Of a DNA stretch of 64,000 nucleotides, positions 3,124 through 42,288 are shown piece after piece. The translations under genes were made by a program, and so were the position numbers. The stretch lies in the NCBI GenBank assembly GCA_963422525.1, contig OY730226.1, forward strand, positions 1,982,881 through 2,046,880, written 5' to 3'. Each line of letters starts with the position of its first letter. Position 1 is the stretch's first letter. The stretch is from Dehalococcoidia bacterium. Lineage in GTDB: Bacteria > Chloroflexota > Dehalococcoidia > Lucifugimonadales > JADFKI01. The notes beneath the pieces were generated by a model. It saw only the letters and a program-made list of their open reading frames with translations. It was not told the DNA's origin and searched no databases.

Positions 3124-3175
3124 GCAGTATGACGATGCCAAGCAACCCGCCGTCTGCGAGCCTCAAGATTGACCG

Positions 3176-3673: not shown

Positions 3674-3723
3674 AAGCCGCCACCGCCTATGCTTATGCGT
3701 TACAATGACGCTTTACCTACTCA

Positions 3724-3921: not shown

Positions 3922-3951
3922 CCATCGCTGCAGGGTCAATCGCCTGACGAC

Positions 3952-5329: not shown

Positions 5330-5566
5330 CGATTTCTGATGTTAGAGGGTGTTACCCAATTTCCATTGACGCCGAGCGCTTATCGCCGCGGCGGTTGTTC
5401 TAAGTATATCACGCCCGCTGAGTATAACCTCGCGCAGTTAATCGCAGGGGCGCTATTCCCGAATTATCTTGTTACTTATAACGGTTTCTGTTACCGTTTG
5501 GCTAGGCGATAGCGGCATACATCACTCAATTTGAACTTCCCCAAGTCGTCTTTTGTGGAGGCAGGG

Positions 5567-7141: not shown

Positions 7142-7350
7142 TGGCGGCGGGCGAAGGCGTGTTCATAACGAAACGGATAGCCGCCGTGGTTGCCGCTGTA
7201 CATGCGTATCTCGATGCTGAAAGGCGCATCGAACGGAGCCGTTCCTCGGATGTGGGAGCGTGGCGCTCGTCGATATTGCCCGGCAGCAACGATGGCGTCG
7301 CTAGCCGCCGCTCCTGGACAGGCAGAGACGCGGCAATTAGCGCAAGATAG
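7141..7350 (+). CDS. small protein between the carboxyltransferase genes (possible accessory subunit)
   Basis: Its ATG overlaps the 12S stop (TGATG). The IAAVVAAVHAYL motif resembles small subunits or linkers of biotin-dependent decarboxylase/carboxylase complexes. It fits exactly between the two large genes. Confidence 0.35.
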   Translation: MAAGEGVFITKRIAAVVAAVHAYLDAERRIERSRSSDVGAWRSSILPGSNDGVASRRSWTGRDAAISAR

Positions 7351-7357
7351 GTCTATT

Positions 7358-9448: not shown

Positions 9449-10657
9449 GTGGATAAATCACAAGCAATCGAAGCCGCAAAGCAGCACTTCGGTACCGTTA
9501 TGCAAGAGCAGCTGGATCGTGTGGAACGACTGAAGCAGGAGGGAGACTGGGTTGACTATTCGAGTGTCAGTCCAGTGGTTATCGGCATGCTTGGCGGCGA
9601 CGGCATAGGACCGACCATCAGCGACGAAACCCAGAAGGTGTTGGAATATCTACTACGCGACGCGGTTGCGGATGGCAAAGTGGAGTTCAAGGTCATCGAC
9701 GGGCTGACCATCGAAAACCGAGCCGCCAAGTTGCAGTCTATACCGGACGACGTGCTAGAAGAAATCAAGCAGTGCCATGTAACCCTCAAAGGACCTACGC
9801 ATACGCCGGAGCAGGGCGACGGCTGGCCGAACATTGAGAGCGCGAATGTGTCTATGCGCAAGGCGCTAGACCTCTTCGCCAACGTGCGCCCCGTGCGCGT
9901 GCCAAGCCAAGGCATAGACTGGACATTCTTCCGCGAGAACACCGAGGATATGTACGCCGTCGGCAGCCAGGGGATAAATGTCTCCGACGATCTCGCCATA
10001 GACTTTCGCGTCATCACTAGTCAAGGCTCGGAGCGTATCATCGATGCCGCGTTCGCGCATGCGCAGCGCACCGGCAAAGAGCGCGTTACCATCGTTACCA
10101 AGGCAAACATCGTCAAGACCACAGACGGCAAGTTCCTCGACATTGCGCGCAAAGTCAGCGAGCGATACCCCGACATCGAGTGGGACGGCTGGTACATCGA
10201 CATTATGACCGCCGCGCTCATCAACCCGGCGCGGCAAAAAGATTTTCAAGTATTAGCGCTGCCGAACCTGTACGGAGATATATTGACGGACGAAGCGGCT
10301 CAAATTCAGGGCGGCGTCGGCACGGCGGGGAGCGCGAACATCGGTAAGCGCTACGGCATGTTCGAGGCGATACATGGCAGCGCGCCGCGTATGGTCGCCA
10401 CCGGCAGAGCGCAGTTCGCCGACCCTAGCTCGCTGGTGCGCGCAGGCGCGATGATGCTAGAGCACATCGGCTTCGAGGATATTGGCGGCAAACTGCACAA
10501 AGCATTGGACATCTGCGGTCAATACGAGCGCAAGATGGTGATGACAGGACGCGACACCGGCGTCACCAGCGCGGAGTTTGGCGAGTATATTATGCGGACG
10601 GTCGAAGACCCGAATGTGGAAGAGCGCTGGGACGAATATGTCAGCGCCGAACGTTAG
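9449..10657 (+). CDS. isocitrate dehydrogenase (isocitrate/isopropylmalate dehydrogenase family)
   Basis: GTG start preceded by GGAAAGGAG. GGDGIGPTI, NLYGDILTDEAAQIQGGVG and EAIHGSAPRM motifs. Sits next to mdh. Confidence 0.85.
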   Translation: MDKSQAIEAAKQHFGTVMQEQLDRVERLKQEGDWVDYSSVSPVVIGMLGGDGIGPTISDETQKVLEYLLRDAVADGKVEFKVIDGLTIENRAAKLQSIPDDVLEEIKQCHVTLKGPTHTPEQGDGWPNIESANVSMRKALDLFANVRPVRVPSQGIDWTFFRENTEDMYAVGSQGINVSDDLAIDFRVITSQGSERIIDAAFAHAQRTGKERVTIVTKANIVKTTDGKFLDIARKVSERYPDIEWDGWYIDIMTAALINPARQKDFQVLALPNLYGDILTDEAAQIQGGVGTAGSANIGKRYGMFEAIHGSAPRMVATGRAQFADPSSLVRAGAMMLEHIGFEDIGGKLHKALDICGQYERKMVMTGRDTGVTSAEFGEYIMRTVEDPNVEERWDEYVSAER

Positions 10658-28785: not shown

Positions 28786-30390
28786 TTAATCGGGCTCGCG
28801 CGCCTGCCTATACTGCAGCGCCTCAGCGAGATGCGACACCCCGATGGCATCCCCACCCGACAGGTCTGCGATTGTGCGCGATACCTTCAGGATGCGATGA
28901 AACCCCCTCGCCGACAGGTTCATGCGGTTCATAGCCGTCTGCATCAGCCTCTTAGCGTCATCGTCCATCTGGCAGAAGTTCCAGACCTCGTTCGGTCCCA
29001 TCTCGGAGTTGTTCACCAGTCGGCTACCATTGAAGCGCCGCCGTTGGCTGCCAATCGCCACCTCCACGCGCTGCCGCACCTGCTGCGAGCATTCGGCGTC
29101 GTTCGGCCGCGTCAGTTTCTCATACTCCACTCGAGGCACCTCTACGAACAGGTCGATACGATCAAGCAGCGGGCCGCTGATCCGCTGACTGTAACGCGAA
29201 ATCTCACTAGGTCTGCACACGCATTGCTTCGCCAGGTCGTTACGGTAGCCGCATGGACACGGGTTACGCGCCGCGACCAGCATGAAGTTAGCAGGGTAGC
29301 TAATGCTTCCCTGCGCGCGGCTGATGGTTACGACACCGTCCTCGATCGGCTGTCGCAGCACTTCAAGCACACTGCGCCCGAACTCAGGCAGTTCGTCCAG
29401 GAACAGCACACCGCGATGGCTGAGCGTCACCTCACCCGGTCGCGGGATCCTGCCGCCGCCGACCAATCCCGCATTGGATATTGTGTAATGCGGCGCGCGG
29501 AACGGGCGCTCATCTATAAACGGCGACGACGCCGACAGCAGCCCACTCACGCTGTAAATCTTCGTAACATCTATGGCTTCTTCGTAAGTCATAGTCGGCA
29601 TGATGGTCGGAATGGCGCGCGCAAGCAACGTCTTGCCGCTGCCGGGCGGGCCGGTCATCAGTATATTGTGGCCTCCCGCCGCAGCGACCTCAAGCGCTCG
29701 CTTGGCGTGCTCCTGACCACGCACGTCGGCTAAATCAACATCCCTGCCGACGCGAACGCTTTCGTTCCGCCATTGCGCGCGACCGTTCGAGCCTGAAACA
29801 TCCTCCGCCACCGGCTCAATTCGGCCATCCTCCCGCAAATGCCGCACCAGATGACCAAGCGTCTCGACAGGGAATACGCGAATGTCCTCAACGAGCGCTG
29901 CTTCGCCCGCGTCGCATGCCGGCACGAACACCGAATCGAAGCCTTCATCGCGCGCTACGGCGACCATAGAAAGTATGCCGTTAGTATGCCGCAGCGTGCC
30001 GTCGAGCGACAATTCTCCGAGGTACATCGCGGACGATGGCGCGGCAGGCAGTTGCCCCGAGCTAATCAGCAACGCCAGCGCAATCGGCAGGTCGTAGGCG
30101 GGTCCCGCCTTCGGCAGGTCCGCCGGCGCCATATTCGCCGTAATGCGCCGCATCGGAAACTCACACCCTGAATTGCGTATCGCAGCGCGCACGCGCTCCC
30201 TTGCCTCCTGCACCGCAGCGTCCGGCAAACCCACAATCGTGAACCTAGGCAGCCCCGGTGAGATGTCAACCTCGACCTGAACGACAAACCCTTCCAGACC
30301 AACCACAGCGCAAGTGAAAGATTTCGCGAGCAAACGATAACCTCCGATTCGAATGAGCCTATACTTATCACCAATGGGGCTAGGCGTCAA
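28786..30390 (-). CDS. comM: YifB/ComM-family Mg-chelatase-like AAA+ ATPase
   Basis: N-terminal Lon-protease-like domain, Walker A MTGPPGSGKTLLA, Walker B VLFLDELPEF, and a C-terminal ChlI-like region. Confidence 0.9.
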   Translation of the reverse strand: MTPSPIGDKYRLIRIGGYRLLAKSFTCAVVGLEGFVVQVEVDISPGLPRFTIVGLPDAAVQEARERVRAAIRNSGCEFPMRRITANMAPADLPKAGPAYDLPIALALLISSGQLPAAPSSAMYLGELSLDGTLRHTNGILSMVAVARDEGFDSVFVPACDAGEAALVEDIRVFPVETLGHLVRHLREDGRIEPVAEDVSGSNGRAQWRNESVRVGRDVDLADVRGQEHAKRALEVAAAGGHNILMTGPPGSGKTLLARAIPTIMPTMTYEEAIDVTKIYSVSGLLSASSPFIDERPFRAPHYTISNAGLVGGGRIPRPGEVTLSHRGVLFLDELPEFGRSVLEVLRQPIEDGVVTISRAQGSISYPANFMLVAARNPCPCGYRNDLAKQCVCRPSEISRYSQRISGPLLDRIDLFVEVPRVEYEKLTRPNDAECSQQVRQRVEVAIGSQRRRFNGSRLVNNSEMGPNEVWNFCQMDDDAKRLMQTAMNRMNLSARGFHRILKVSRTIADLSGGDAIGVSHLAEALQYRQAREPD

Positions 30391-30495: not shown

Positions 30496-33039
30496 CTAGG
30501 CATTATACACGCCATCCAAGTTCGCTAACACGCCTGAAAACTCATCCTCGCTGAACACAAGCTTAAAAGTGCCTTTCGCAGGACCTTCTCTAACCGTCAT
30601 ATTTCCGTAATTGTTGTAAGCGTTTTGAAGAGTTTCCAGCACGCGTTCCTTGTAATCGGTGTCAGGGCTGTCGCGCAGATGCGCGCCTTTCGTCTCGAAC
30701 ACCAGCACATGCGGCTTTCCGTCGGTTTCGCCGCCCATAGCGACGAAGTCCGGCCAGATGCGATCTCGCTTCCAGCCGCGCAGATAGTAATCACCCTGCT
30801 GCCGCACGGCGACTCGATGCCACCAACGCAGCGCTTTATGCTCGTCGAGGTAACGCGCGAAACTGCGCTCAAGATTGGAGTCGAACTGCTGAGTGTACAC
30901 AGGCTCGAACAGGCTAAGCTGTAGCGCCGACGTCCCGCCTTTTCCCGTCATCAACCCAGCATCTACAGGCGCAGGTATGTCGTAGCGCTCCACCATGCGG
31001 AAGTTAGGTTTGCCGTCTTCCAATTTTAAGTCAAAGCGGATTTCGCCCCGGCTAAGTTTGCCGCGAAATGCCCGTTCAGCCTGCTTTTCCAGCGCATCGG
31101 TTACATAGTCGCGCAACGCAAACGCCAGATATGAACGCTTGTCGTAGATCTCATCATCAGCGTCGCCGCCGGCGCGCAGTTTTTCAACCAACTTCTGCGC
31201 GATGCGCGCCGCCTGCCACGGGTTCGGCACAACATCGGACAAACGGCGCGCAAACCATGTTATCTGCACCGTCTTGTCAATATACAACTCGCGGTCGGCG
31301 TGAAACATCGGCAGAGCGTCTCCCACATCAACCGTCGCCGACTGCCACTTGGCACCGTCCCCAAAGCTGTTTTGCAGATCTGAAACCTCAATAGCGCTCC
31401 AGTCTATGCTCGGCAGGATGTGACTCTGGTAATCCAACTCGCGCCATCCGCCATTATCCTCGTGCATCACCTTCGGCAAAAATATATCCGCGTTCTTGAA
31501 CCGCTCACGCCGCTTTACGGTAACTCGCTGAAAATCATCCGCATTGCTGGTTACCGCGTCGCCCAATCCGTCCAACCCTTCCTGCTCCAACCCCAATTTG
31601 ACATGCTCGACGGCGACGCCCACCTGTGTGTTGTGGCAATACACATAGCACTGGTCAAGGGGCTCTCGTCTTGTGCGCTGGGCGTGCGGCTGACGCATCA
31701 CGCGTCCCACAAGCTGCGTTATGGCGGTTTTCGCACGCGTGTTGTCCAGCATCACCAGCAAGTACGCGAATGGGCAGTCCCATCCCTCTTTCAGCGCGTC
31801 CTTAGTGATTATCCAGCGCACCGGCGAAAACTCCGACAGCAAGTCCAGTCCTGCGATTTCGTCCGTCTGAGACGATTTGACCTTCACGGCTTCAGCGGCA
31901 ACGCCCAAGTTCTGGATCAAGTAGTCACGCGCATCCTCGGAGTGAATGCGGTCTCCGTCGCGCTGATTCTTGCCGGTGCGTTCCACGCGCACTACGGCGA
32001 TAGGGCGAATGTACCTTCCTTCGCTCTGTTGCAACGACTGCGCCTCATCGTTAAGCCGTTCAAGCTCATCGTGCGCCTGCTGCAGCGTGTAATGCCAATC
32101 GGCGTTAGTGAAGGATGTCACCTGCACCGGCAGTTTTATCATCTCCTCCTGTTTCAATTCTACGCCGCTGATGTCCACCAGCAGGTTGCTAATTCCCCGA
32201 TTGGGCGTAGCGCTCAATTCAATGACGAGACGAGGATCGATACGATTGACGGAGCGCGCGAACTCTCTTTGCGTCTTATCGGATTTTCCATAAGCCTTGT
32301 GCGCCTCGTCGAGAATGACTACGGGACGCAGCATTTTGAACACATTGAATAGGCTGTGCTTTACAGGTCCGCCCTGTGAAGATCGATCCAGATCCGGATA
32401 ATCCTTTAGAAGGCTGCCATCCCCAAGCAAGTCATCGCTATCCGGGAACAGCGTGGGATAGCGCCCCGAATCTCGGAACATTCGCAGAAACTCTCTGCCC
32501 TTCTGACGATTGGCGGCCGGCAACATCAGCAGCATCACGCACATATAGTTAGCAGTGTCCGCCAGCGTGAACGGCTCGTCCTTTTCCAGAAGTTTCACTC
32601 GACCGCCGCTGCCGCGCTCCAGCATCTGCCGATAGGGATGTTCTCGATTCCAGAGGGCGGCTTTGGTCTGCTCGTATATGGCGCGACTCGGAGTTATCCA
32701 CAGCGTAAGCCCCGTCGGACGGTTCAGTCGTTCCAGCGTCGCAGCGGCGAGCAGTGTCTTGCCTCCGCCGGTCGGCACTTTAAGGCATGCATGCGGAATA
32801 GGACGACCGGCTTCATCGGTGCGGCTCACATATTCGCCGGCGCTCTCCGCAACGCCGCCGGAATCCGCCAATCGTTTCCATGCGCTTTTGGGATAGTTAC
32901 GCACATCATCCGGGACGTCCAGGCCGGCGGCTTGCAAGGCTGTTACGGCGGTTTTCGCTTGCAGCCGCGCCGTCTCCAGCGCGTCGCGCCAGCGCGTGAA
33001 AGATTCCAAGGCAGCGAGCTGATACTCTTTCAGTTCCAT
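30496..33039 (-). CDS. res: type III-like restriction enzyme Res subunit (SF2 DEAH helicase with C-terminal PD-(D/E)xK nuclease)
   Basis: Helicase motifs VPTGGGKT (I), VILDEAHKA (II), ELSATP (III) and QLVGRVMRQP (VI). The C-terminus carries WPDFVAM...VLVFETKG, a PD...ExK nuclease motif. Confidence 0.85.
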   Translation of the reverse strand: MELKEYQLAALESFTRWRDALETARLQAKTAVTALQAAGLDVPDDVRNYPKSAWKRLADSGGVAESAGEYVSRTDEAGRPIPHACLKVPTGGGKTLLAAATLERLNRPTGLTLWITPSRAIYEQTKAALWNREHPYRQMLERGSGGRVKLLEKDEPFTLADTANYMCVMLLMLPAANRQKGREFLRMFRDSGRYPTLFPDSDDLLGDGSLLKDYPDLDRSSQGGPVKHSLFNVFKMLRPVVILDEAHKAYGKSDKTQREFARSVNRIDPRLVIELSATPNRGISNLLVDISGVELKQEEMIKLPVQVTSFTNADWHYTLQQAHDELERLNDEAQSLQQSEGRYIRPIAVVRVERTGKNQRDGDRIHSEDARDYLIQNLGVAAEAVKVKSSQTDEIAGLDLLSEFSPVRWIITKDALKEGWDCPFAYLLVMLDNTRAKTAITQLVGRVMRQPHAQRTRREPLDQCYVYCHNTQVGVAVEHVKLGLEQEGLDGLGDAVTSNADDFQRVTVKRRERFKNADIFLPKVMHEDNGGWRELDYQSHILPSIDWSAIEVSDLQNSFGDGAKWQSATVDVGDALPMFHADRELYIDKTVQITWFARRLSDVVPNPWQAARIAQKLVEKLRAGGDADDEIYDKRSYLAFALRDYVTDALEKQAERAFRGKLSRGEIRFDLKLEDGKPNFRMVERYDIPAPVDAGLMTGKGGTSALQLSLFEPVYTQQFDSNLERSFARYLDEHKALRWWHRVAVRQQGDYYLRGWKRDRIWPDFVAMGGETDGKPHVLVFETKGAHLRDSPDTDYKERVLETLQNAYNNYGNMTVREGPAKGTFKLVFSEDEFSGVLANLDGVYNA

Positions 33040-33051
33040 CGTCTATCACTC

Positions 33052-33276
33052 TTACTCTTCGGGCTTCCGCTGCGGTTCGGCAAGCGAAATACCCATCTCG
33101 CGGGCGCGCCGCTCCAAACGTTCTTCACGCTCAGCAATCTCCTGATACGCCCGCGCGTAACCTTGTTTGACCCCCGCTTCGATACCCCTTTCGATACCTT
33201 CTTCAATCCCTTCTTCGCGCGCCTCCAACCACAACTTTCTGCGCCATTTACGCCTTTGATCAAGCGCCCAAAACAT
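33052..33276 (-). CDS. truncated duplicate of the C-terminal coiled-coil half of the 148-aa protein
   Basis: 74 aa, nearly identical to residues ~71-148 of the 33383..33829 product but lacking the TM region and one GIEx unit. Probably a by-product of the duplication. Confidence 0.35.
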   Translation of the reverse strand: MFWALDQRRKWRRKLWLEAREEGIEEGIERGIEAGVKQGYARAYQEIAEREERLERRAREMGISLAEPQRKPEE

Positions 33277-33280
33277 AAGC

Positions 33281-33370
33281 CTAACTCCTCTTCACCTGCA
33301 CCTTATCCAGCGCATTGCGCCAGCGCATGAAAGATTCCAAGGCAGCTATCTGATACTCTTTCAGTTCCAT
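33281..33370 (-). pseudogene. orphan duplicated res 5' fragment
   Basis: Encodes MELKEYQIAALESFMRWRNALDKVQVKRS*. The first ~21 codons match the res N-terminus MELKEYQLAALESFTRWRDAL. Confidence 0.6.
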
Positions 33371-33382
33371 CGTCTATCGCTC

Positions 33383-33829
33383 TTACTCCTCCCGCTTCCG
33401 CTGCGGTTCGGCAAGCGAAATGCCCATCTCGCGGGCGCGCCGCTCCAAACGTTCTTCACGCTCAGCAATCTCCTGATACGCCTGCGCGTAACCTTGTTTG
33501 ACCCCCGCTTCGATACCCTTTTCGATACCCCTTTCGATACCCTCTTCAATCCCCTCTTCGCGCGCCTCCAACCACAACTTTCTGCGCCATTTACGCCTTT
33601 GATCAAGCGCCCAAAACATAAGCCTAACTCCTCCCTCAGTCAGCACGGCGATCATCCCGTACAACGCTACCCCCAAGTCCACCAGCGTCGCCGCAGTCCG
33701 CAAACTTGCTTGCGTCTGCCATACTCCCTGCTCCGACCAGTATGTCAACAGGGCCGTCACCGCGAACACTCCGAAAGGGACGAACATCGCATGACGGCGA
33801 ATCCAACGCGTCTCATCTGAACCGTCCAT
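33383..33829 (-). CDS. small membrane protein with charged coiled-coil tail containing GIEx tetrapeptide repeats
   Basis: Two hydrophobic helices, then KWRRKLWLEAREEGIEEGIERGIEKGIEAGVKQGY..EREERLERRAREMG. Its stop lies 12 nt upstream of the duplicated res start. Confidence 0.5.
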   Translation of the reverse strand: MDGSDETRWIRRHAMFVPFGVFAVTALLTYWSEQGVWQTQASLRTAATLVDLGVALYGMIAVLTEGGVRLMFWALDQRRKWRRKLWLEAREEGIEEGIERGIEKGIEAGVKQGYAQAYQEIAEREERLERRAREMGISLAEPQRKREE

Positions 33830-33923
33830 AGTCCAACCAGTATAACATCATCACAATACCTACACTTCATCACATGCGCGCCGACACATCAACAAGATCC
33901 GCTTCTCGCTCCTTAACCCCCCG

Positions 33924-33995
33924 TCAGATGCATCTCATACGGAAGCTGGCAGAAGGCTACTCCCATTGCAGTGAGCTCGCACTGACCGATACTTC
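33924..33995 (-). pseudogene. relic copy of the mod 3' end
   Basis: 33928-33995 aligns to mod 34497-34566 with 8 mismatches and a 2-nt gap (~86% identity). It encodes ..IGQCELTAMGVAFCQLPYEMH.. versus the Mod C-terminus YIGQRELTAMGITFCQLPYEMHR*. It abuts the hicA stop. Confidence 0.7.
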
Positions 33996-34215
33996 AAAGA
34001 GCAACGCAAAACTCACTAACCGTGAGCCCCGCAGCACGAATAAGGCTTCGTAGAGTACCCTTAGCGATTGTCCGAGAATTTGGCACAGAAAGAGTGGCGT
34101 GTTCACCTGATTTAGTTAGGATTATATGACTGCCTCGTTGCCGCGCGACATTCCAGCCGAAGCGTTGAAAATTGCGCGCCGTTTGCGCTCCGCTGAGCGT
34201 AAGCAGTTGCGGCAT
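33994..34215 (-). CDS. hicA: HicA-family mRNA interferase toxin
   Basis: The 73-aa sequence LSGAQTARNFQRFGWNVARQRGSHIILTK..TLSVPNSRTIAKGTLRSLIRAAGL is the YcfA/HicA signature. The ATG overlaps the hicB TAA (TAATG). Confidence 0.85.
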   Translation of the reverse strand: MPQLLTLSGAQTARNFQRFGWNVARQRGSHIILTKSGEHATLSVPNSRTIAKGTLRSLIRAAGLTVSEFCVAL

Positions 34216-34421
34216 TACACCATCACTTCCAGCTGGCGCGTCTCAATAGTAAGCGGCATACCTTGCTCTGCTCTCACCTCAATGCAATCAACTATCGCCT
34301 GCCGTATGTTCTCCAAAGCTTCATCTTTGGTTATGCCTTGGCTAACGCAACCGGGGATAGACGGGCATTCAACAATCCAAACGCCATCCTCGTCCCTGTC
34401 TAATGTTACGGTTAGTTTCAT
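34215..34421 (-). CDS. hicB: HicB-family antitoxin
   Basis: MKLTVTLDRDEDGVWIVECPSIPGCVSQGITKDEALENIRQAI matches the HicB N-terminal RNase H-like fold. A GGAGG SD lies 6 nt upstream of the ATG at 34421. Confidence 0.85.
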   Translation of the reverse strand: MKLTVTLDRDEDGVWIVECPSIPGCVSQGITKDEALENIRQAIVDCIEVRAEQGMPLTIETRQLEVMV

Positions 34422-34490
34422 TGAGCGCCTCCCTGAGCGCGGTGTACGCATTTATCTGTGGCAAGATAATAGCACAACCCATTGCTACTC

Positions 34491-36409
34491 TCACCTATGC
34501 ATCTCATACGGAAGCTGGCAGAATGTTATCCCCATCGCCGTAAGCTCGCGCTGACCGATGTACTTCCCCGGCGCAAACACGACCGCCTGCCTGCCATTCC
34601 CGCGACCGGCGCTAATGCGCCTTGCTCGCTCCGCGTTCAGCATCGCCTCATTGCCGCCCAGCCAGCCGACATCAGCCTCATACAGCAGGTAATAGTCCGT
34701 GGTTTCACTCCTATAAAACAGCCCGTCCTCGTTCTGCGGCGACAGCGAGGCTTCGCCGGCTGACACCCCCGACGCCGTGTGCAGCAGGTACGCCGCCAGC
34801 GCAGAGTACGATGGCAGCGCATCCCCCGTCAGCATCGACTCAACATCTATCGGCTCGCCCAGTTCGCAGTAGGTAAACGACCCGCCAAGCCCTTCTTGCA
34901 GCGACTTGTCACGCGCGTTGGGAACGCCATTGATGACCCGCTGCACGCGTTCGGCGGTAATGGTGTCTGCGTAGTCCTCGCACTCTACGAGTATGAACTT
35001 GCGGCTGCCGCCATCCTCTTTGTTGAGCGCAAGCACGGCGTGCGCTGTTGTGCCGCTGCCCGCGAACGAGTCGAGGATGATGTCGCTCTTATCCGACCCT
35101 ATCCGCAAAATCTGCTGAACCAAAGTATGCGGCTTCGGGTTCTGGAAAGGGCTGTCACTATCATCGAATATCTGCAAGACGATCCTGCGTGCATTCGTGG
35201 TGCTTCCAACCGCATCGTTTCCCCAAATGGTTATTGGAACTACGCCTTGCTGCACATCTTGCAAGTATCGTTTTAGCTGCGGTCTGCCGTCTCCATTTTT
35301 GCCGAAATAGATGCGCTTGTCCGCAAGCCAAGCAGCCATCGTTTCTCGATTAGTAATCCAGCATCTCCCCAGAGGTGGATTATGCACTTCACCTGTATTG
35401 GGATTTGTGAGCGGATAGTCGTAATCCGAGGTGTAGGATTTTACGCTTAAATTATCTGTCGCCCATAATCCTCGCCCATCGTGGTCGTCATGCCGATATG
35501 CTTTATTATGGGCGTCCGTGCGAGGCAACAAGTTGCGCCGCCAACCGACAGCGTCATCCTTTGTTTGTATTCGACGCTTGGCGTAGCACAGAACGAAGTC
35601 GTGGTTATCAGAGAAGTACTTGGCGTCATTCTGCGGGCTGTTCTTCTTCTGCCAGATGATGTTCGTTACAAAATTATCAGCCCCAAAAATCTCATCCATC
35701 ATCATGCGCAGGTGATGCTGCTCGTTGTCGTCTATGGATATGAATATAGCGCCATCGTCCGACAGCAGCTCCCGCAGCAGATGCAGCCTCGGCCACATCA
35801 TGCACAGCCACTTGTCGTGCCGTTCCAAATCCTCCCCGTCAACCGGCCTGTTCTCCGCAAGCCACTGCCGCATCAGCGGGCTGTTCACGCGGTCGTTATA
35901 GACCCACCCTTCTTTGCCGGTGTTGTACGGCGGGTCTATGTAGATGCACTTGACGCGCCCGGCGTAGCGCGGCAGCAGCGCCTTGAGCGCGTGCAGGTTG
36001 TCGCCGTGGATTATTAGGTTGTCGTCAGTCAAGCCTTCAGATAAAATATCATGACCGACCGACCGACCGACCGACCGACCGACCGACCGACCGACCGACC
36101 GACCGACCGACCGACCGACCGACCGACCGACCGACCGACCGACCGACCGACCGACCGACCGACCGACCGACCGACCGACCGACCGACCGACCGACCGACC
36201 GACCGACCGACCGACCGACCGACCGACCGACCGACCGACCGACCGACCGACCGACCGACCGACCTCATCGCCTTTGAAAGAACATTTGCACTATCAGGCG
36301 GCCGAGAACCAAGAACCGACCTCTCCGCGTCCGGCTCCAACGGGCGGTATGGCACACTCAAATGGTGCGCGTAAATGTGCTGTTTCCCCTTAAAGTCCAG
36401 CGTAGGCAT
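34491..36409 (-). CDS. mod: type III-like beta-class DNA methyltransferase Mod, split into two reading frames by an internal tetranucleotide repeat tract
   Basis: The N-terminal piece (36409..36029, GAGGAG SD) encodes MPTLDFKGKQHIYAHHLSVPYRPLEPD.., a Mod-type LxWxGK N-terminus, followed by (RSVG)n. The catalytic piece (36032..34491, TTG) encodes NLIIHGDNLHALKALLPRYAGRVKCIYIDPPYNTG (motif IV) followed by DSFAGSGTTAHAV (motif I). The frames differ by one 4-nt unit. Confidence 0.85.
36053..36264. repeat. perfect simple sequence repeat (GACC)53, which is (GGTC)53 on the coding strand
   Basis: 212 nt of uninterrupted 4-nt periodicity, counted from the sequence and confirmed by the 17.5 TDRP units of the + strand shadow ORF. 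Flanked by TCAT on both sides. Confidence 0.98.
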
Positions 36410-36593: not shown

Positions 36594-37364
36594 CTAGCCG
36601 ATGACGGCGACAGGCTTGAAGCGGTCGAACTCAGGCGGCAGCAACGGCAAAATTTGCTCCGGCGACATGCCGTACACATCGTAGTTCATGTAGAGCTGAT
36701 CCAGCACATCTATGAGGCGCACAACACCGCCGGACGGACGCTGATTGCCGCCGCCGCCCGCAACACCCTGCTTCAACTTGCGTGTCCGGGGGTCAGCGTA
36801 AAGCAGATGCGCCAACTGGATAACGCCCTTCGAGCGAAATGCTTCCGGTTTGCCCACCAGCCTGTCGGTGAAATGCGTGAGAGAGTTCACAGGTTCGTCC
36901 AGCATATACCAAGCGCTGCGTTGATGATGAAAATATATCTCGTAGGAAAGCATCAGCCTATGGGCAAAGCGCCGTTTCTCACCGCGTCCTTCCGCGCTAG
37001 GATCTGTAACAAAAGGCACATCGCTGCTACCCAAGCGCGGGTTGCCGTCCGCATCCTTGCGCGCCACCGTATCGAAGTAGAACATCCCCAGCCACGACCA
37101 CAGCCGATAGTTTTCGATGACCCGCGACGCAGGCAGCGGGCTGAGACGCTCCATCAAGTACAACGCAGCTTCGCGGCGTGTATCGAAACGCTGCCGCTCT
37201 ACATACACAGCCGGCTCCACCCATTCGGCGTGCAGAGAGTTCGTCAGCAACGAGTCCGGGAACGGGCTATATTTGCCCTCGCGCAACGACGCTAAGTAAT
37301 CCTTGGCGACGCGAATGCCCACATCTGTCAGTTCCCGAACCCTATAAGATTGTTGAGTAGTCAT
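36594..37364 (-). CDS. uncharacterised protein, tandem paralog A (256 aa)
   Basis: Shares its N-terminal ~110 aa (..LSPLPASRVIENYRLWSWLGMFYFDTVARKDADGNPRLG) and C-terminal ~45 aa (..RLIDVL.QL.MNYDVYGMSPEQILPLLPPEFDRFKP) with paralogs B and C. The central region is divergent. Confidence 0.8.
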   Translation of the reverse strand: MTTQQSYRVRELTDVGIRVAKDYLASLREGKYSPFPDSLLTNSLHAEWVEPAVYVERQRFDTRREAALYLMERLSPLPASRVIENYRLWSWLGMFYFDTVARKDADGNPRLGSSDVPFVTDPSAEGRGEKRRFAHRLMLSYEIYFHHQRSAWYMLDEPVNSLTHFTDRLVGKPEAFRSKGVIQLAHLLYADPRTRKLKQGVAGGGGNQRPSGGVVRLIDVLDQLYMNYDVYGMSPEQILPLLPPEFDRFKPVAVIG

Positions 37365-37401
37365 TGCTGTGCCTCGCGCCGGTTTTTGGATTGTCCCCGC
37401 A

Positions 37402-38190
37402 CTAAGAATACCCTACTGCTGAAGCGGGCTTGAAGCGGTCGAACTCAGGCGGCAACAGCGGCAAGATCTGCTCCGGCGACATGCCGTACACATCGTAGTT
37501 CATGTTGAGCTGACCAAGCACATCAATGAGACGCGGCAGACTCCCCGGCGGCGCCGTTACCCTGTCATCACCGTAGCTGCCCGCTTTCAGACGATTCCCT
37601 TGACTATCCGCGTACAAAATATGCGCCAGTCCCACAATTCCCGCAGAGCGAAAGAGCTCAGGCGCGCTCGCGAGCCGAAGAGTGAATGTGCTCAGGGAAT
37701 TGACAGGCTCTTCGAGCATAAACCAAGCGCCCTCACTATGCCTTGTATAGATTTCGTAAGCCAGCATCAGCCTATGTGCGTATCGCCGCGTTTCTCCCCG
37801 TCCGGCTTGCGCCCCCGGGTTCGGGTCTATCACATAGGCTATGTCGGGATCTCTTCCCAAGCGTGGATTGCCGTCCGCATCCTTGCGCGCCACCGTATCG
37901 AAGTAGAACATCCCCAGCCACGACCACAGCCGATAGTTTTCGATGACCCGCGACGCTGGCAGCGGGCTAAGACACTCCGTCAGATACAACGCGGCGTCGC
38001 GGCGCGCGCTGAACTGCTGCTGCGTCACATACACCGCCGGCTCCACTTCCGTGGCGTACAGCGGGTTCGTCAGCAGCGAGTCCGGGAACGGGCTATATTT
38101 GCCCTCGCGCAACGACGCTAAGTAATCCTTGGCGTCGCGAATGCCCATATCGGTCAGTTCCCGAACCCTATAAGATTGTCGAGTAGTCAT
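37402..38190 (-). CDS. uncharacterised protein, tandem paralog B (262 aa)
   Basis: Same family as A and C. The 37-nt intergenic spacer is conserved with the B-C spacer. Confidence 0.8.
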   Translation of the reverse strand: MTTRQSYRVRELTDMGIRDAKDYLASLREGKYSPFPDSLLTNPLYATEVEPAVYVTQQQFSARRDAALYLTECLSPLPASRVIENYRLWSWLGMFYFDTVARKDADGNPRLGRDPDIAYVIDPNPGAQAGRGETRRYAHRLMLAYEIYTRHSEGAWFMLEEPVNSLSTFTLRLASAPELFRSAGIVGLAHILYADSQGNRLKAGSYGDDRVTAPPGSLPRLIDVLGQLNMNYDVYGMSPEQILPLLPPEFDRFKPASAVGYS

Positions 38191-38227
38191 CGCTACGCCT
38201 CACGCCAGTTTTTGGATTGTCCCCGCA

Positions 38228-39016
38228 CTAAGAATACCCTACTGCTGAAGCGGGCTTGAAGCGGTCGAACTCAGACGGCAGCAGCGGCAAAATCTGCTCC
38301 GGCGACATGCCGTACACATCGTAGTTCATGTAGAGCTGACCAAGCACATCAATTAGACGAGGCAAACTCCCTGTCGGAGCCGTTACATCGTTGGTCCAAC
38401 CCCACCCAGATCTCATGCCACCCGTCTTTCTATCGATATACAGCAGGTGAGCCAACTCCACAATTCCTCTTGCACGGAAAATCTCCGGAGCGCTTGTAAG
38501 ACGCATCGTGAACCTTCCTAATGAATTAACAGGCTCATTCAGCATGTACCAGGCATTTTCAGCGTGGTGGGTATAGATTTCGTAAGCCAGCATCAGCCTA
38601 TGTGCAAATCGTCTAGTCTCTCCCCATTTAGCCTGTGAGTTGGCTGCAGGGTCTGCCACATACGCAACATCTGGATCTCTGCCCAAGCGCGGGTTGCCGT
38701 CCGCATCCTTGCGCGCCACCGTATCGAAGTAGAACATCCCCAGCCACGACCACAGCCGATAGTTTTCGATGACTCGCGACGCAGGCAGCGGGCTAAGACA
38801 CTCCGTCAGATACAACGCAGCGTCTCGACGGACGCTGAACTGCTGCTGCGTCACATACACCGCCGGCTCCACTTCCGTGGCGTACAGCGGGTTCGTCAGC
38901 AGCGCGTCCGGGAACGGGATAGACTTGCCCTCGCGCAACGACGCTAAGTAATCCTTGGCGTCGCGAATGCCCATATCGGTTAATTCGCGGAGGCGCAAAC
39001 TTTGGTGCGTCGTCAT
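38228..39016 (-). CDS. uncharacterised protein, tandem paralog C (262 aa)
   Basis: Same family as A and B. Its ATG lies 4 nt after the stop of the 254-aa gene, with GGGGAGG upstream. Confidence 0.8.
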   Translation of the reverse strand: MTTHQSLRLRELTDMGIRDAKDYLASLREGKSIPFPDALLTNPLYATEVEPAVYVTQQQFSVRRDAALYLTECLSPLPASRVIENYRLWSWLGMFYFDTVARKDADGNPRLGRDPDVAYVADPAANSQAKWGETRRFAHRLMLAYEIYTHHAENAWYMLNEPVNSLGRFTMRLTSAPEIFRARGIVELAHLLYIDRKTGGMRSGWGWTNDVTAPTGSLPRLIDVLGQLYMNYDVYGMSPEQILPLLPSEFDRFKPASAVGYS

Positions 39017-39020: not shown

Positions 39021-39785
39021 CTACCTCCCCACCGCCGCCAAATAGCGGTCGCTTGGATGAAACCGCTCGTTGCTGAATGTGCTCACCGCCCCGTCAATCC
39101 ATTCTTTCATATCCGTCTTCGTCTGCTCATCGTTAAGCGACAAGACCGGCATCTCCGCGTCATAGAAATCCCTAACGAAGCCGATCCAGTGCGCCCAGTC
39201 GCCCTCACCGTCCGACGGATCGAATTCGTCGATTATCAGCGCCTGCGTCAGAATAAGCCGCAGCGTCTCAGGAATCACAAGCGCGCGGAAAGCGCCATCC
39301 TCGCGCACGACTGCGCTGATCCCGGGGATGTTCTTGTTCACTTGCATTATCGGTGTGTCATTGCCGCCTCCAAAATCTACCCGCCAAACCTCTTTGTCCA
39401 AATCCTTTTCTTCCAAGTGCAGCAAAGACTTCGTTCCGTCCGCGCCGGCGTATGAAGGCTTTATATTGTCTGCAAGAGCGAGTATGCGCCGCGATCCGTC
39501 GGGGTCTAGCGCCATTATGCGAAACTTCGGAGCCTTAGGCATACTGGTCAGATAGCAATCCGTCGGCGGCATAGGACTTCCCGCCGTACCCCAATCGAAC
39601 CTGCGCGATGAGCGTTCGCGCTTCGCTTCTATCACAATCGGCGCATCAGGCGGCAGATCCAAACGACTGAGATCCACCTTTGCGATAAACTGCGGGTCCT
39701 CATCTTCGTCGGCATCCTGGATCTCTACGCTAACCATACTCTCTTCTATGCGTTTGCGCTGAGTGTAGTTAAACCTGCGTATCAT
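39021..39785 (-). CDS. uncharacterised 254-aa protein, translationally coupled to the GHKL ATPase gene
   Basis: Long ORF overlapping the upstream gene by 17 nt. Acidic N-terminus. No motif recognised. Confidence 0.7.
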   Translation of the reverse strand: MIRRFNYTQRKRIEESMVSVEIQDADEDEDPQFIAKVDLSRLDLPPDAPIVIEAKRERSSRRFDWGTAGSPMPPTDCYLTSMPKAPKFRIMALDPDGSRRILALADNIKPSYAGADGTKSLLHLEEKDLDKEVWRVDFGGGNDTPIMQVNKNIPGISAVVREDGAFRALVIPETLRLILTQALIIDEFDPSDGEGDWAHWIGFVRDFYDAEMPVLSLNDEQTKTDMKEWIDGAVSTFSNERFHPSDRYLAAVGR

Positions 39786-41883
39786 TGTCCGCGCCCCCTA
39801 GTTCCATATCTCCTGAAAGTTCGTCTAACTTCACATACACATCGCGGTTGGAGTCAAAGCCCTGCACACTGAGATCGAAGTCGCGTGGGTCTGATATGTA
39901 CAACCGCATCTCATTGTCCTGCATCTTTGCGTCGAATGTCGCCGCGGTATCTTTGACTGCGCTTGGCGCCGCTTCAGACGGCGGCGCGAAAATGCCGCGC
40001 AGCAGCTTGCCGAATGTCGCCTTTTCCGCAGTTCCGATCTCGGCATTCGCCATCATGACTTCACAGCCCTTGTGCGTGATATTGAGATCTCGCAGTCGAA
40101 AGTCGTTCGGCGTGTAGCTCTTAATTGGGTTGCCGCGCGGCGTCTGATAGGCAACCTGCAACAGAGCGTACTCCGGAGGGTTCTCGCTGTCAGTCGGGAT
40201 TCTTATGCGAAAACCCGTGCCGGAATGTGTGTTGCTTATCTCAAATTTCATAGGATTGCTGTTGATGTCCACCTCTTGTCTGCCGGCAGTGGCGGCAGTT
40301 CCCGTTCTCTGCCCTCTTGAAGCAACCCGACTATTCGGCTCTACATAGAAAAATATGTCCGCGAATGCGTCCTTTTGTATGCTTTCGGTTGGAGTTCGTA
40401 GCGCCTGCAACAGCTTGCGCGTCGCATTCCGAACCGCGGTTATACGCCGCGGCGCCGCTACCCATCGGTCCGTAACTCTATGAACACTCGTCCTCCAACT
40501 CGTATGCGCCGGCGGTTCGGAGTCCCGCAGCATAGCGGCTAGGGGTTCCCTCTCATGCACCGTCAACAGCGTCCTAGCGCTTGTTTGCCCAATAAAGTTC
40601 ATCTCGGATATGGACAACGTGCCGCGCACATAGTAGTCATGCCCTTCCCTCAGCGCATCGTCTTTCTGAATGTACAAGTTGAACTTAGTCTCTTCGCGCG
40701 CTCCATTCTTCCTTTGAACATCCGTGGTTACGCGAAACGGCAACAGCTCATGCGCGTTATACCTACGGCGCAGCCTTTTAATGCCAGCGTAGCCTTCGTC
40801 GTTCATCCGCTCGATGTCCGCAACAAGTATATCTATGTAGTCGCCGTCTGAAAGCGCCATCTTCTGGCGGCACATCTCAAATAGATGCTGATAGCCCTCA
40901 ACGCTGCGTTCGCCGCTGTCTTCTAGGTCGGCTCGCTCAAGAACGGAATCGATAGTATCGGCGGTAATTTCTATCGGCGGCGAGCCGTCGCCCTCGTCAA
41001 GCATTACCTCCAGACTGCGATTAATGATGGCATAAAAGTAGTTGTGGATGATGGCGGCGAGTATTTTGGGCGTTTCCAGCCTCTCGTCTTCGTCGTCTAT
41101 ACGCGGAAACGGGATGATGATAGACAAGCCCGACTCGTCCTTATCGCGCCGCCATAGCCCGAAATCCGTTATGCACTCATCTATAAAAGCCTTTTGCTCG
41201 GAGACAAAGCTGTCCAGCGGCAAAGCGAACTCTTCGTCATCGAAAATGCCGAAGTAGCCATATGGCGCATGCCGCCGCCTGTTGACATCGTGCTTCTTCA
41301 GCACCGACTGCCCCATAAGCAGCGCCGCGTTATCAGAGCGCCGTCGCGTTACCGCGATATATGAGCTGATGCGAGACGCGTCCGGGAACACCCACTTGCC
41401 AAGTCCCCATGAGCCGTTCTCGCTGTCGCCCTTGCCGGAGCGCCCTACATTGCGAAAGAACCAGTAAAAGTGGTTGTTGCTAGCGGATTCCGTTTCAGAG
41501 TCGTCATACTGCTCAAATTTGCCTTCAAGCCCAACAGTGCCAGCGTCTTCTATAACTATGAACGGCAGCCCGCTCTGACTCAGATTGGCATCATCAGCGA
41601 AAAGCGCATGGACATCCATATCGCTTTGCGTTCTGAGATGCCGCGCAAGCCCTTTGATATACTTATTAGCGTAGTAAGCAGGCAGCGGTTTGTGTATGCC
41701 GCGAAGTGAGAATCGCACCCTCACGGGCGTGTTGGCGTCACAGCGAGCGTCCAACGAGTTCTGGATAGCCTCCCGCACAAGACGAGTGTTTATAGGCTCT
41801 TCATCAAAAAACTCACGCTCTATCGGCTCTTGGTTAATTTCGGCTTTACCCATCCTACGAAATCGCCATTGCGCATTTTCCAT
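39769..41883 (-). CDS. GHKL (Bergerat-fold, histidine kinase/Hsp90/MutL-like) ATPase domain protein, 704 aa
   Basis: N box LVREAIQNSLDAR, G1 box VIEDAGTVGL, G2 box GSWGLGKWVF, all within the first ~170 aa. The remaining ~500 aa have no recognised motif. Confidence 0.75.
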   Translation of the reverse strand: MENAQWRFRRMGKAEINQEPIEREFFDEEPINTRLVREAIQNSLDARCDANTPVRVRFSLRGIHKPLPAYYANKYIKGLARHLRTQSDMDVHALFADDANLSQSGLPFIVIEDAGTVGLEGKFEQYDDSETESASNNHFYWFFRNVGRSGKGDSENGSWGLGKWVFPDASRISSYIAVTRRRSDNAALLMGQSVLKKHDVNRRRHAPYGYFGIFDDEEFALPLDSFVSEQKAFIDECITDFGLWRRDKDESGLSIIIPFPRIDDEDERLETPKILAAIIHNYFYAIINRSLEVMLDEGDGSPPIEITADTIDSVLERADLEDSGERSVEGYQHLFEMCRQKMALSDGDYIDILVADIERMNDEGYAGIKRLRRRYNAHELLPFRVTTDVQRKNGAREETKFNLYIQKDDALREGHDYYVRGTLSISEMNFIGQTSARTLLTVHEREPLAAMLRDSEPPAHTSWRTSVHRVTDRWVAAPRRITAVRNATRKLLQALRTPTESIQKDAFADIFFYVEPNSRVASRGQRTGTAATAGRQEVDINSNPMKFEISNTHSGTGFRIRIPTDSENPPEYALLQVAYQTPRGNPIKSYTPNDFRLRDLNITHKGCEVMMANAEIGTAEKATFGKLLRGIFAPPSEAAPSAVKDTAATFDAKMQDNEMRLYISDPRDFDLSVQGFDSNRDVYVKLDELSGDMELGGADNDTQV

Positions 41884-42288
41884 TTGAAGCCTCTGCTATT
41901 CACATTCTTAATATCGCCCACTAACAGAGCGGCATTCACAAAACGCCACTCATATCTCCATCGCCAATGCTATATCCACAGGGACTGCATCGCAAGCCCG
42001 TCGCCCGCCGCTTAAGTCTGATTGCTTAAGGCTAATCACCAGCCGCTGTTACCTTTACGCCATCTGGCCACTCCCGCACGCTGACTATCAGATGCAGCAT
42101 CCGCCCTATGTGCGTCGCGCCCTGTACTGGCAGCAGCGGGATACGCGGAATATGGAATTGCCTCGCCGTCGGGCGACCAGGCGTGCCAAGCGCAGCGCTG
42201 TCTGCGCGGCGACACTACCAAGCGCCGCATACCCACGCTTCGCGCTCGTTACAATCTCTCTAGTCAACGCTGACTAACGCAATGCGGT

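Follow-up and report, generated by a model that had tools for sequence, protein, structure and literature searches.

How did a hicBA toxin-antitoxin pair come to sit inside a Type III restriction-modification operon, with the 3′ end of mod on one side of it and an orphan, diverged version of that same gene end on the other? The question is raised by a locus from a Dehalococcoidia bacterium (GCA_963422525.1, contig OY730226.1, positions 1,982,881-2,046,880, forward strand; the whole 64,000-nt stretch that was analysed is hereafter “the window”), the source being a metagenome-type assembly and the chromosomal context of the locus being ComM-res ... PDC-M33A.

The operon, the toxin-antitoxin pair and the repeated mod end

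The features needed for the argument are the following (positions within the window):

30496..33039, minus strand: res, Type III restriction subunit, 847 aa (PF04851 E 1e-11; PADLOC REase_III E 3e-188)
32962..33633, minus strand: tandem duplication, two units (32962-33292 and 33293-33633), copies 90-94% identical
33383..33829, minus strand: small gene, 148 aa, two hydrophobic segments and a charged repeat tail (open reading frame; no solid Pfam match)
33830..33927, minus strand: the relic's own tail and the spacer before the small gene, i.e., the sequence originally downstream of the old mod end
33928..33995, minus strand: relic of the mod 3′ end, 22-24 codons, frame intact, no gene body attached
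33990..33995, minus strand: junction, 6-nt GAAGTA common to the end of hicA (..CTTTGAAGTA) and to mod (..GGGAAGTACA)
33994..34215, minus strand: hicA, predicted toxin, 73 aa, GSH motif (PF07927 E 4.8e-14; alignment with homologues)
34215..34421, minus strand: hicB, predicted antitoxin, 68-aa form (PF15919 E 1.5e-8; open reading frame extendable to 34451)
34466..34494, minus strand: candidate hicBA promoter, -35 GTGAGA over the mod stop, 17-nt spacer, extended -10 TG-TATTAT (a consensus match only, the regional count of such matches equalling the shuffle expectation)
34491..36032, minus strand: mod body, Type III methyltransferase, 513 aa from a TTG start (PF01555 E 5.5e-39; PADLOC MTase_III E 1e-167)
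34497..34566, minus strand: live repeat copy, 23 sense codons at the end of mod, followed by just the final Arg codon and the TGA stop
36029..36409, minus strand: mod N-terminal 32 conserved codons, then (GGTC)53 (36053-36264), out of frame with the body

With Mod and Res encoded on one strand, and with the mod body covering positions 38-540 of the 542 in the PADLOC MTase_III profile, the locus is classed, by sequence, as a Type III restriction-modification system. Its mod would also count as phasevarion-type, as the gene holds an in-ORF simple repeat whose copy number varies between strains, with 53 GGTC units in the window, 44 in L163 (a second, independent assembly from another sample, which has the same layout and is 97.3% identical over 8.6 kb) and 28 in L162 (a homologous locus). 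The full-length mod reading frame is not intact, the N-terminal 32 codons and the body differing in frame across (GGTC)53, and the same out-of-frame relation is seen in all three assemblies.

An earlier note on this DNA, made from the letters alone, had suggested that the insertion of hicBA splits the restriction-modification operon, and the relatives agree with this, mod and res being no more than 48 nt apart in 52 of the 68. The gap between them was probably taken up before hicBA by the small gene, a separate occupant with a tandem duplication of its own: each unit consists of the 3′ two-thirds of the small gene and the first 26 codons of res, and the duplication includes a res 5′ relic (33296-33370; res-head profile E 6e-11) and a truncated copy of the small gene (33052-33276).

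Domain content (52.6 bits for HicA against PF07927 and 35.2 bits for HicB against PF15919, the cutoff being 27 in both cases) and adjacency point to a HicAB type II toxin-antitoxin pair, arranged as one operon in which 1 nt is shared by the hicB stop and the hicA start. Neither reading frame is interrupted in the window or in L163, and the 68-aa version of hicB is also the called form in L163-L176. Between the two mod ends there is nothing besides hicB, hicA and a 39-69 nt promoter-like spacer, so that the earlier reading of this interval as hicB-hicA only is upheld by PF15919 and PF07927.

That the tail of mod recurs with 8 mismatches and a 2-nt gap had likewise been noticed, and formal alignment confirmed it: blastn of 34497-34566 against the whole window returned 33928-33995 over 70 columns with exactly those differences (E 1.1e-17), the second-best match in the window having an E of 0.22, while the top score in 30 shuffles of the window was 13 as opposed to the 39 observed. 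A repeat search of the window paired 33928-33990 with 34497-34559 (63 nt, 87% identity), and a profile of 80 Mod C-termini matched the relic with an E of 1e-10; read on the minus strand, the relic gives SIGQCELTAMGVAFCQLPYEMHLTGG* and mod gives KYIGQRELTAMGITFCQLPYEMHR*. Chance similarity, or a chimera assembled from two strains, can be regarded as refuted, as it has the metagenome-type source assembly and nothing more in its favour, and has against it the E of 1e-17 within the window and the independent assembly from another sample with the same structure (L163, relic at 2300-2367); since the layout is shared with L163, the bracket is not an assembly artefact.

The relic directly abuts the hicA stop, as had been claimed, and even overlaps it, GAAGTA at 33995-33990 holding the GA of the TGA stop. 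Read in frame, it stays open past the TCA at 33924-33926, which does not terminate it, up to a TAA of its own (33915-33913), and its tail, 33927-33913, reads CTG ACG GGG GGT TAA, i.e., LTGG*. The two copies, therefore, end in different natural mod tails, HR* in the live one and HLTGG* in the relic, which is a non-coding scar. Replacements between them are conservative, the relic has retained both a reading frame and a stop, and the differences fall at third codon positions in 6 of 9 cases in the window and 5 of 7 in L163 (p ~0.045, a signal of 7-9 sites). The 36 nt nearest hicA contain all 8 differences, the stop-proximal 27 nt being identical (p ~0.008); this block encodes FCQLPYEMH, the most conserved Mod motif, and its identity may reflect constraint on that motif. 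Because of the different natural tails and the third-position differences, the copies appear to come from the ends of two mod alleles that had diverged, not from a fresh duplication.

Related loci with and without hicBA

The search for an empty site in related genomes, which the earlier note had proposed, succeeded in part: a single-copy homologue was found (L162), whereas no orthologous empty site was, L162 lying in a different chromosomal context. In L162, one mod end runs directly into a relic-type tail, the spacer and the small gene, with no hicBA. Window 33830-33927 aligns with the stretch of L162 that immediately follows the mod His codon (CTGGCGGGGGGTGTAAGG...), L162 9492-10562 matches window 33990-32962 at 84% (blastn), and the small-gene homologue stands directly 3′ of mod (9673-10143), three small-gene/res-head tandem units being carried there. 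The single repeat copy, joined to the relic's flank at this non-orthologous chromosomal position, is identical to the live copy of the window at 63 of 63 positions, which makes L162 a hybrid of a live-type repeat and a relic-type flank. The comparison with L162 supports the relic being a genuine mod 3′ end, formerly next to the small gene, and the suggestion that an old mod end was left behind as a relic thus held. A tandem duplication of the mod end together with hicBA, followed by the loss of one hicBA, was considered and rejected, as the relic runs into the native flank seen in L162.

The next closest Mod after that of L162 is just 75% identical (P0002) and, belonging to an orphan mod, was set aside as uninformative. 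Exact look-ups of the window HicA and Mod returned no context, and a metagenome scan with the HicA alignment yielded 80 loci, 79 of them without mod or res nearby.

There are also loci in which hicBA lies between mod and res without any relic, namely L165 (mod-hicBA-(IS)-res) and, with hicB only, L041 (mod-hicB-res), and L164 consists of a mod 3′ fragment, hicBA and a res 5′ fragment, again without a relic. The window sequence following the His codon (AGGTGAGAGTAGC) resembles the natural HRAG* tail of L041 (AGGGCCGGGTAGC). These relatives support the view that hicBA belongs together with the spacer and the live mod end, a unit also met elsewhere as mod-hicBA-res. Of the earlier idea that the cassette had “supplied or duplicated” the mod end, the first half, a surrogate end being supplied and the old end becoming the relic, is the better fit, given the two natural tails.

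The same bracket recurs at other hicBA loci. Direct repeats flank the pair at 14 of the 63 loci of this hicBA subfamily versus 3 of the 280 control intervals (p 6e-9), and the tight geometry of a gene end plus its relic was seen at 10 of the 63 versus none of the 280 (p 2e-8). The bracketed host genes are unrelated and number at least seven (ileS, an sdhB-like gene, a TPP enzyme gene, mgsA, an enoyl-CoA hydratase-like gene and an aminotransferase gene among them), with repeats from 42 to ~420 nt long. Mirror-image cases exist as well, with res 5′ relics upstream of hicB (L074, L082), as do res 5′/mod 3′ fusion scars (L045, L082, L064). A specific recombination site at res codon 25 was discarded as a candidate, the breakpoints clustering at codons 22-33 without being identical. 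Judging from these genomes, the bracket seems to mark a route by which addictive genes repeatedly settle in genomes although they bring no mobility enzyme.

The TPP enzyme case closely parallels that of the window: the live end is PFT*, the relics are PFEV* (L175/L176), both tail types also occur in hicBA-free genomes (L179-L181), and the relic type varies with the downstream island, HicA being 100% identical across those genomes. The notion that the cassette itself supplies the tail and stop of the live copy (in three cases a single sense codon precedes the stop) was rejected on this account, PFT* ending the hicBA-free TPP gene of L181, and HR.. tails are, moreover, frequent where mod has no hicBA beside it. 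For the TPP relics, the tests by codon position were ambiguous, since GC-biased mutation could mimic constraint there.

It is at this point that an alternative has to be weighed, namely that the bracket began as two identical copies, of which the downstream one later decayed; this we consider unlikely. Its target-cassette-target-native flank geometry matches a described class of restriction-modification gene insertions (PMC2853133), L162 provides a single-copy empty-site homologue, and the TPP divergences (18-20% from relic to live end, 20% from relic to relic) are compatible with zero initial divergence. However, the live copy continues as the natural tail HR.., not as random cassette DNA, and the relic as another natural tail; the third-position bias and the clustering of differences in 36 of 63 nt are unlike uniform neutral decay; and no gene-end bracket above 96% identity was seen among the surveyed hicBA loci.

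Possible origins of the bracket

The explanation we lean towards is that the window locus arose when host functions recombined two natural forms of a single Type III locus. Form A would be mod-spacer-hicB-hicA-spacer-res, with hicBA directly after the mod stop, and form B would be mod-small membrane-protein gene-res. From the former would stem the left part (mod ending in ..EMHR*, the promoter spacer, hicB and hicA) and from the latter the right part (the last 22-24 codons of a mod ending in ..EMHLTGG*, its stop, the spacer, the small gene and res), the two having presumably been joined exactly at the hicA stop via the 6-nt microhomology GAAGTA. If two natural forms recombined in this way, the repeat copies would be the 3′ ends of diverged mod alleles and would not have been copied at insertion. 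One side may have been settled by homologous pairing in the conserved mod or res and the other by an illegitimate join at the microhomology, with host functions performing both and no element-encoded recombinase being involved; the occasion might have been the uptake of foreign DNA, an exchange between paralogous loci, or a deletion between adjacent loci. A complete hicBA would be kept as recombinants losing the pair would be killed by HicA, given its presumed toxicity, and this would account for the tight fit of the joint to the hicA stop, while the 27-nt perfect match could allow a RecA-mediated loss of hicBA leading to an L162-like arrangement. As to the direction, which, like the order of events, the killing role of HicA and the enzymology, is something we infer, the small-gene block could equally be the newcomer, one that failed to replace hicBA.

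Several observations strain this recombinant explanation, among them the absence of an orthologous empty site from the loci found, a codon-position signal of 7-9 sites, and TPP divergences that a duplication with identical copies would also fit. The clustering of the differences counts against a plain illegitimate fusion, which does not predict it, and a homologous crossover or conversion inside the repeat fits it better. In addition, as the copy in L162 is the live one and not the relic, an extra recombination event is needed.

The clustering and the L162 copy are addressed by a Campbell-type integration, which we rate as distinctly improbable: a small, non-replicating hicBA circle with a captured mod 3′ end would have entered by RecA recombination in the 27-nt block. 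The live copy would then be resident on the left and cassette-derived on the right, the hicA-proximal 36 nt of the relic would come from the circle, and the reverse reaction would regenerate the empty site, excision joining ..GAGATGCAT to CTGACGGGGGGT with a live-type left half. Such an integration alone predicts, together, the identical stop-proximal block, the clustering of differences in the other 36 nt and the L162 hybrid, and L164 shows hicBA travelling with short pieces of both neighbours. Against this, a prior event is needed to create the joint of hicA stop and mod end, no circle and no second insertion with the same hicA/mod joint was found, and, the block being made of the FCQLPYEMH codons, its identity may be a matter of constraint. 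A length of 27 nt is, besides, at the lower limit for RecA-dependent exchange.

Still less probable, to the point of being a very long shot, is a miniature site-specific integrative element served by a recombinase in trans, with the 27-nt block as its att core (likened to a cis-mobilisable element or an integron cassette). An identical core with diverged arms and the resemblance to islands that rebuild the 3′ ends of their targets would suit it, and L084, the only relative so placed, is flanked by integron attC-like repeats. Yet the absence of a recombinase gene, already remarked upon in the earlier note, holds, together with that of a transposase, for 25-46 kb; there are no inverted repeats at 33990-34500 (as would be expected of an IS, transposon or MITE) and no attC-like structure in the window; and the conserved cassette-end motifs that had been thought worth seeking are lacking among the independent hicBA copies. 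With neither recombinase, attC or inverted-repeat ends nor shared end motifs, no sign of the discrete integrative cassette once envisaged was seen, and at least seven unrelated targets with repeats of such different lengths are beyond one site-specific enzyme.

Comparison with known systems

The closest known phenomenon is the “insertion with long target duplication” of restriction-modification genes (Nobusato et al. 2000, Gene 259:99; Furuta, Abe and Kobayashi 2010, PMC2853133). There, direct repeats of more than 30 bp are copies of the target, often lying across a gene's stop or start, mobile elements of other kinds are absent, the empty site has one copy, and one reported target is a Type III M gene; the inserts are restriction-modification systems, the repeats are near-identical (44/46, 47/47), and DNA breakage by the restriction enzyme was suspected by the authors (PMC2853133). 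The window locus is similar in having repeats above 30 bp (63-70 nt), a small addiction-type unit and no integrase or transposase, but differs in that its copies, at 87% identity, fall short of near-identity, show two natural tails and a third-position bias, and enclose hicB and hicA, with no R/M genes and no DNA-cleaving activity. With a bracket frequency far above that of the controls, and at unrelated genes, the hicBA loci would extend this insertion mode to a non-cutting unit, which would weaken the idea of restriction cleavage driving such insertions.

Homology-facilitated and double illegitimate recombination in natural transformation are said to have been treated by de Vries and Wackernagel in 2002 and by Hülter and Wackernagel in 2008. 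SPDIR and illegitimate recombination have been described experimentally in Acinetobacter and Streptococcus, usually with a loss of recipient DNA, and the favoured recombinant would be similar to them in having a homologous anchor on one side, a 3-10 nt microhomology on the other, and host enzymes only. We know of no description, however, of a retained arm fragment beside a toxin-antitoxin pair as a signature.

It is conceivable, and suggested here tentatively, that gene-end relics abutting toxin-antitoxin pairs are a general signature of addiction modules entering or holding sites without a mobility enzyme. The pair might carry a short piece of a neighbouring gene and owe its insertion to two joints, one homologous and one at a microhomology; alternatively, allelic DNA that comes in and cannot replace the pair might join beside it, the unused homology arm becoming the relic. 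If so, the 25-year-old puzzle of long target duplication would be a property of addictive gene units generally, not of restriction enzymes, and an orphan gene end touching a toxin-antitoxin pair might serve for mapping past recombination or failed replacement at defence hot spots; the present locus is a concrete example, with an empty-site homologue, of such a pair nested in a Type III operon without a mobility gene.

Toxin-antitoxin “islets” (Mol Biol Evol 2026, PMC13617665) are compact chromosomal insertions of toxin-antitoxin genes only, without mobile-element genes, thought to propagate through homologous recombination in the adjoining core genes and to be kept by addiction; no gene-end relics bracketing the pair are reported there, unlike in the window, and short palindromes are mentioned in a few cases. 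Islands and prophages that integrate into 3′ ends resemble the window locus in the live gene end lying by the insert and the orphan end on the far side, but they depend on an integrase and show defined ends and a fixed att core, all of which the locus lacks. Finally, the tvr and cod/ivr loci of Streptococcus pneumoniae, as described in PMC6265443 and PMC11709252, hold toxin-antitoxin genes inside phase-variable Type I restriction loci and are, thus, alike in embedding such a pair in a variable restriction-modification locus; those loci rely on a dedicated recombinase and inverted repeats shuffling hsdS, whereas the window locus is Type III, without a recombinase, and owes its variation to a tetranucleotide tract and to TRD replacement.

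The mod-end repeat and the layout of its locus

All genes of the locus are on the minus strand of the window, with the hicB antitoxin and hicA toxin genes between the Type III restriction-modification genes mod and res, and no integrase or transposase was found in the annotation of the locus and its flanks.

Features of the mod-res locus (window coordinates)
36409-36029, minus: short ORF, conserved Mod N-terminus, holding (GGTC)53
36264-36053, minus: perfect (GGTC)53 tract inside that ORF
36032-34491, minus: mod body, Type III Mod by Pfam and PADLOC
39-69 nt, minus: mod-hicB spacer, holding a promoter-like site
34421-34215, minus: hicB, confirmed by Pfam/PADLOC annotation
34215-33994, minus: hicA, confirmed by Pfam/PADLOC annotation
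33995-33928, minus: mod 3' relic, own tail and stop reaching 33913
83 nt, minus: spacer between relic and small gene
33829-33383, minus: small gene, 148 aa
33633-32962, minus: tandem duplication, 331/343 bp, including a res 5' relic and a truncated small-gene copy
33039-30496, minus: res, Type III Res by Pfam and PADLOC
28786-30390: ComM-like gene, on the flank with housekeeping genes

The earlier note's claim that the mod 3' end recurs directly against the hicA stop was borne out by formal alignment (E 1e-17 within the window, far above shuffled sequence), in which the live copy (the last 70 nt of mod) and the relic match over 63 nt ungapped at 87% or, alternatively, over 70 columns that include 8 mismatches and one gap of 2 nt. 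The relic begins on the hicA stop codon and its frame is open (IGQCELTAMGVAFCQLPYEMHLTGG*). Since L163, a related locus from another sample that is 97.3% identical to the window over 8.6 kb, has hicBA, relic, small gene and res just as in the window, an assembly artefact can be excluded as the source of the repeat layout. The relic ORF shares its frame with the hicA TGA, and a terminator-like hairpin within the hicA 3' end (33994-34033), whose T-run ends on the stop, could uncouple transcription of the small gene and res from that of mod and hicBA.

The tandem unit (32962-33633), made of the 3' part of the small gene and the first 26 codons of res, is present twice in the window and three times in the related locus L162 (9869-10880), which lacks the res body entirely; L064 (7879-9567) shows a comparable duplication that involves another small gene, and several independent loci have res 5' relics whose ends fall near codons 22-33. 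Further upstream, the (GGTC)53 tract sits between the conserved first 32 mod codons and the mod body, the two being out of frame and the TGA of the upstream ORF overlapping the TTG start of the body (36029-36409); two related assemblies have 44 and 28 copies (L163 84-259; L162 7867-7978) in the same frame relation, and other lineages have (AC)13 or (AATCAGG)9 at this spot (L003 5948-5973; L042 5936-5998). These look like phase-variable mod genes in sponge-associated bacteria. Because the central target-recognition parts (window 35085-35670, L163 643-1210, L162 8366-8966) are unrelated between mod flanks that are 92-97% identical, replacement of such alleles by recombination within the conserved mod ends is indicated.

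On the other flank (36594-39016 and 39021-41883) a PDC-M33A-like gene, a defence candidate, is accompanied by three tandem paralogues of 256-262 aa, unannotated and without a Pfam or PADLOC match; these adjoin a 254-aa gene and a 704-aa gene matching PDC-M33A, a candidate defence family (E 4e-24). A 66-nt relic of a DUF1800 gene 3' end (HIGRMLHLIVSVREW...; ~42056-42120, minus strand) marks the upstream edge of this defence island; an intact DUF1800 gene is found just upstream of the mod locus in L162 and L165, and the island, whole or in part, may have been copied from a DUF1800-adjoining site like these.

Origin of the two mod ends

The mod of L162, whose conserved parts are 92-96% identical to those of the window mod, has a single 3' end (63/63 identical to the window live copy) that continues after the His codon as CTGGCGGGGGGTGTAAGG (LAGGVRREK*), followed by a spacer and a small-gene homologue, and this downstream stretch matches the downstream flank of the relic (84% over about 1 kb); hicBA is absent from the L162 locus. 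As this single end runs into relic-type flank, the relic is, on sequence grounds, truly a mod end, still in its native surroundings, which upholds its earlier description as an end of mod and not of another gene. What the window has in addition is hicBA and one repeat copy, 569 bp in all. The proposed search for an empty site thus yielded a homologous single-copy site, not an orthologous one, because the chromosomal context of L162 differs (it adjoins the DUF1800 gene).

The live copy and the relic, moreover, seem to derive from two mod alleles that had diverged, each copy being the end of one. Beyond the block that they share, the live copy reads AGG TGA GAG TAG, resembling the natural HRAG* tail of L041 (HR.. 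tails being common in the mod family), and the relic tail, LTGG*, is of the L162 type. With the less mutated L163 relic, 5/7 differences fall on third codon positions and there are two replacements (I/V and T/A), the R-to-C change in the relic being window-specific, which shows that constraint on it was relaxed only recently; at the joint, GAAGTA is common to hicA (..CTTTGAAGTA) and mod (..GGGAAGTACA). Since tail types, third-position bias, the R-to-C change and GAAGTA point to two alleles, we somewhat favour an origin of the locus by recombination between a mod-hicBA-res and a mod-small gene-res arrangement, which would have proceeded through one homologous and one microhomology joint, the intact toxin-antitoxin pair being kept through selection. 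Of the earlier alternatives, that the cassette supplied or duplicated a surrogate mod end, supply is accordingly the better half and duplication the weaker.

Such a recombinant does not explain well why all 8 differences lie within the hicA-proximal 36 nt, with the 27 nt next to the stop identical (p about 0.008). A Campbell-type insertion, with a homologous crossover inside the repeat, predicts this clustering, the identical block and the make-up of L162, but the Mod motif encoded by the block is the most conserved one, and constraint may also have caused the identity. The Campbell-type route we hold to be quite improbable.

Brackets, scars and cargo at related loci

When the 400 nt before hicB were compared with the 400 nt after hicA at every hicBA locus fetched, a direct repeat was found to bracket hicBA in 14 of 63 testable loci versus 3/280 random intervals of matching length (p 6e-9), and with tight geometry in 10/63 versus 0/280 (p 2e-8); with orthologous loci collapsed, the figures are 8/61 versus 0/280.

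Repeats bracketing hicBA
ileS 3' end: 34 codons
sdhB-like gene 3' end: 16 codons
TPP enzyme 3' end: about 66 codons
aminotransferase 3' end
mgsA; enoyl-CoA hydratase-like gene: convergent neighbours
Other cases: integron attC-like (L084); hairpin repeats (L087)

The bracket relics retain frame and stop, and in every case the cassette extends, in rough figures, from 30-104 nt ahead of hicB to 0-37 nt past hicA; the conserved cassette-end motifs that had been suggested as a check did not emerge, none being common to the bracketed cases.

The comparison took in 80 related loci, nearly all of them in sponge-associated metagenome-assembled genomes; the gap between mod and res is at most 48 nt for 52 of 68 loci and contains cargo in 16: various kinds of HicAB pair, a PIN-domain gene and an addiction-module antitoxin, a lipase-like gene, and small signal or transmembrane coiled-coil proteins. 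Genes of the window hicBA subfamily lie directly 3' of mod in L165 (mod-hicBA-res, res codon 3 being interrupted by an IS), L011 and, as hicB alone, L041. In L164 (4660-5460) hicBA stands between a 66-nt mod 3' fragment and a ~130-nt res 5' fragment, the mod and res bodies being absent and the unrelated neighbours being transporter-associated small ORFs and a PSCyt gene. This is either all that remains of a restriction locus that has decayed or a 0.8-kb piece moved there from elsewhere. L074 and L082 carry mirror-image scars, with a relic of some 25 codons from the res 5' end just upstream of hicB; res 5'/mod 3' fusion scars occur in L045, L082 and L064, and a 44-codon mod relic 3' of hicA in L011. 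That last locus (2001-7545) has two tandem mod genes with identical N- and C-terminal parts and different central domains, separated by hicBA, the relic of a third mod, an unknown gene, a PIN gene and a res 5' relic; tandem mod genes number four in L038 and two in L005.

The TPP enzyme locus offers a second case, its TPP-hicBA-relic order being common to four genomes about 94% identical (HicA 100%), with live ends 95% alike but relics no more than 78-80%. The tail of the relic, PFT* or PFEV*, covaries with the defence island that follows it (DUF3644, ParA or GmrSD), and hicBA-free genomes have other islands directly 3' of TPP, tails PFQV*, PFEG* or PFT*, and no second TPP-end copy. Given these tails and this covariation, both tail types are, going by the sequences, natural alleles, and the relic belongs to the variable downstream block. 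For the window, a duplication of the target, with copies identical at birth that later diverged, seems rather unlikely to us; the divergence figures of the TPP locus can still fit such a duplication, and the TPP case is therefore not decisive between alleles and duplication. The region downstream of TPP is a variable defence hot spot (L174-L176 4460-6700; L179-L181), where otherwise collinear genomes carry DUF3644, ParA-like, GmrSD, helicase, N6_N4 methyltransferase or AbiJ-like genes.

Comparison with known systems

The window locus does not qualify as an integrative element, an integron cassette or a transposon. The finding is real and more than a one-off, and what it amounts to is a scar left by recombination, with no new self-mobile element. 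Islets consisting of a TA pair and lacking mobility genes are the subject of a 2026 study, in which spread by homologous recombination at flanking genes is proposed and gene-end relics are not reported (PMC13617665). The nearest known class is the "insertion with long target duplication" of restriction-modification genes, in which long variable direct repeats of the target often run across a stop or start codon, and a mobile element is absent; its authors proposed that the restriction enzyme may contribute by breaking DNA (PMC2853133); a full-text literature search found no paper applying this idea to toxin-antitoxin genes. Unlike that class, the window insert is a toxin-antitoxin pair, with no nuclease acting on DNA, and its repeats are diverged and two-tailed.
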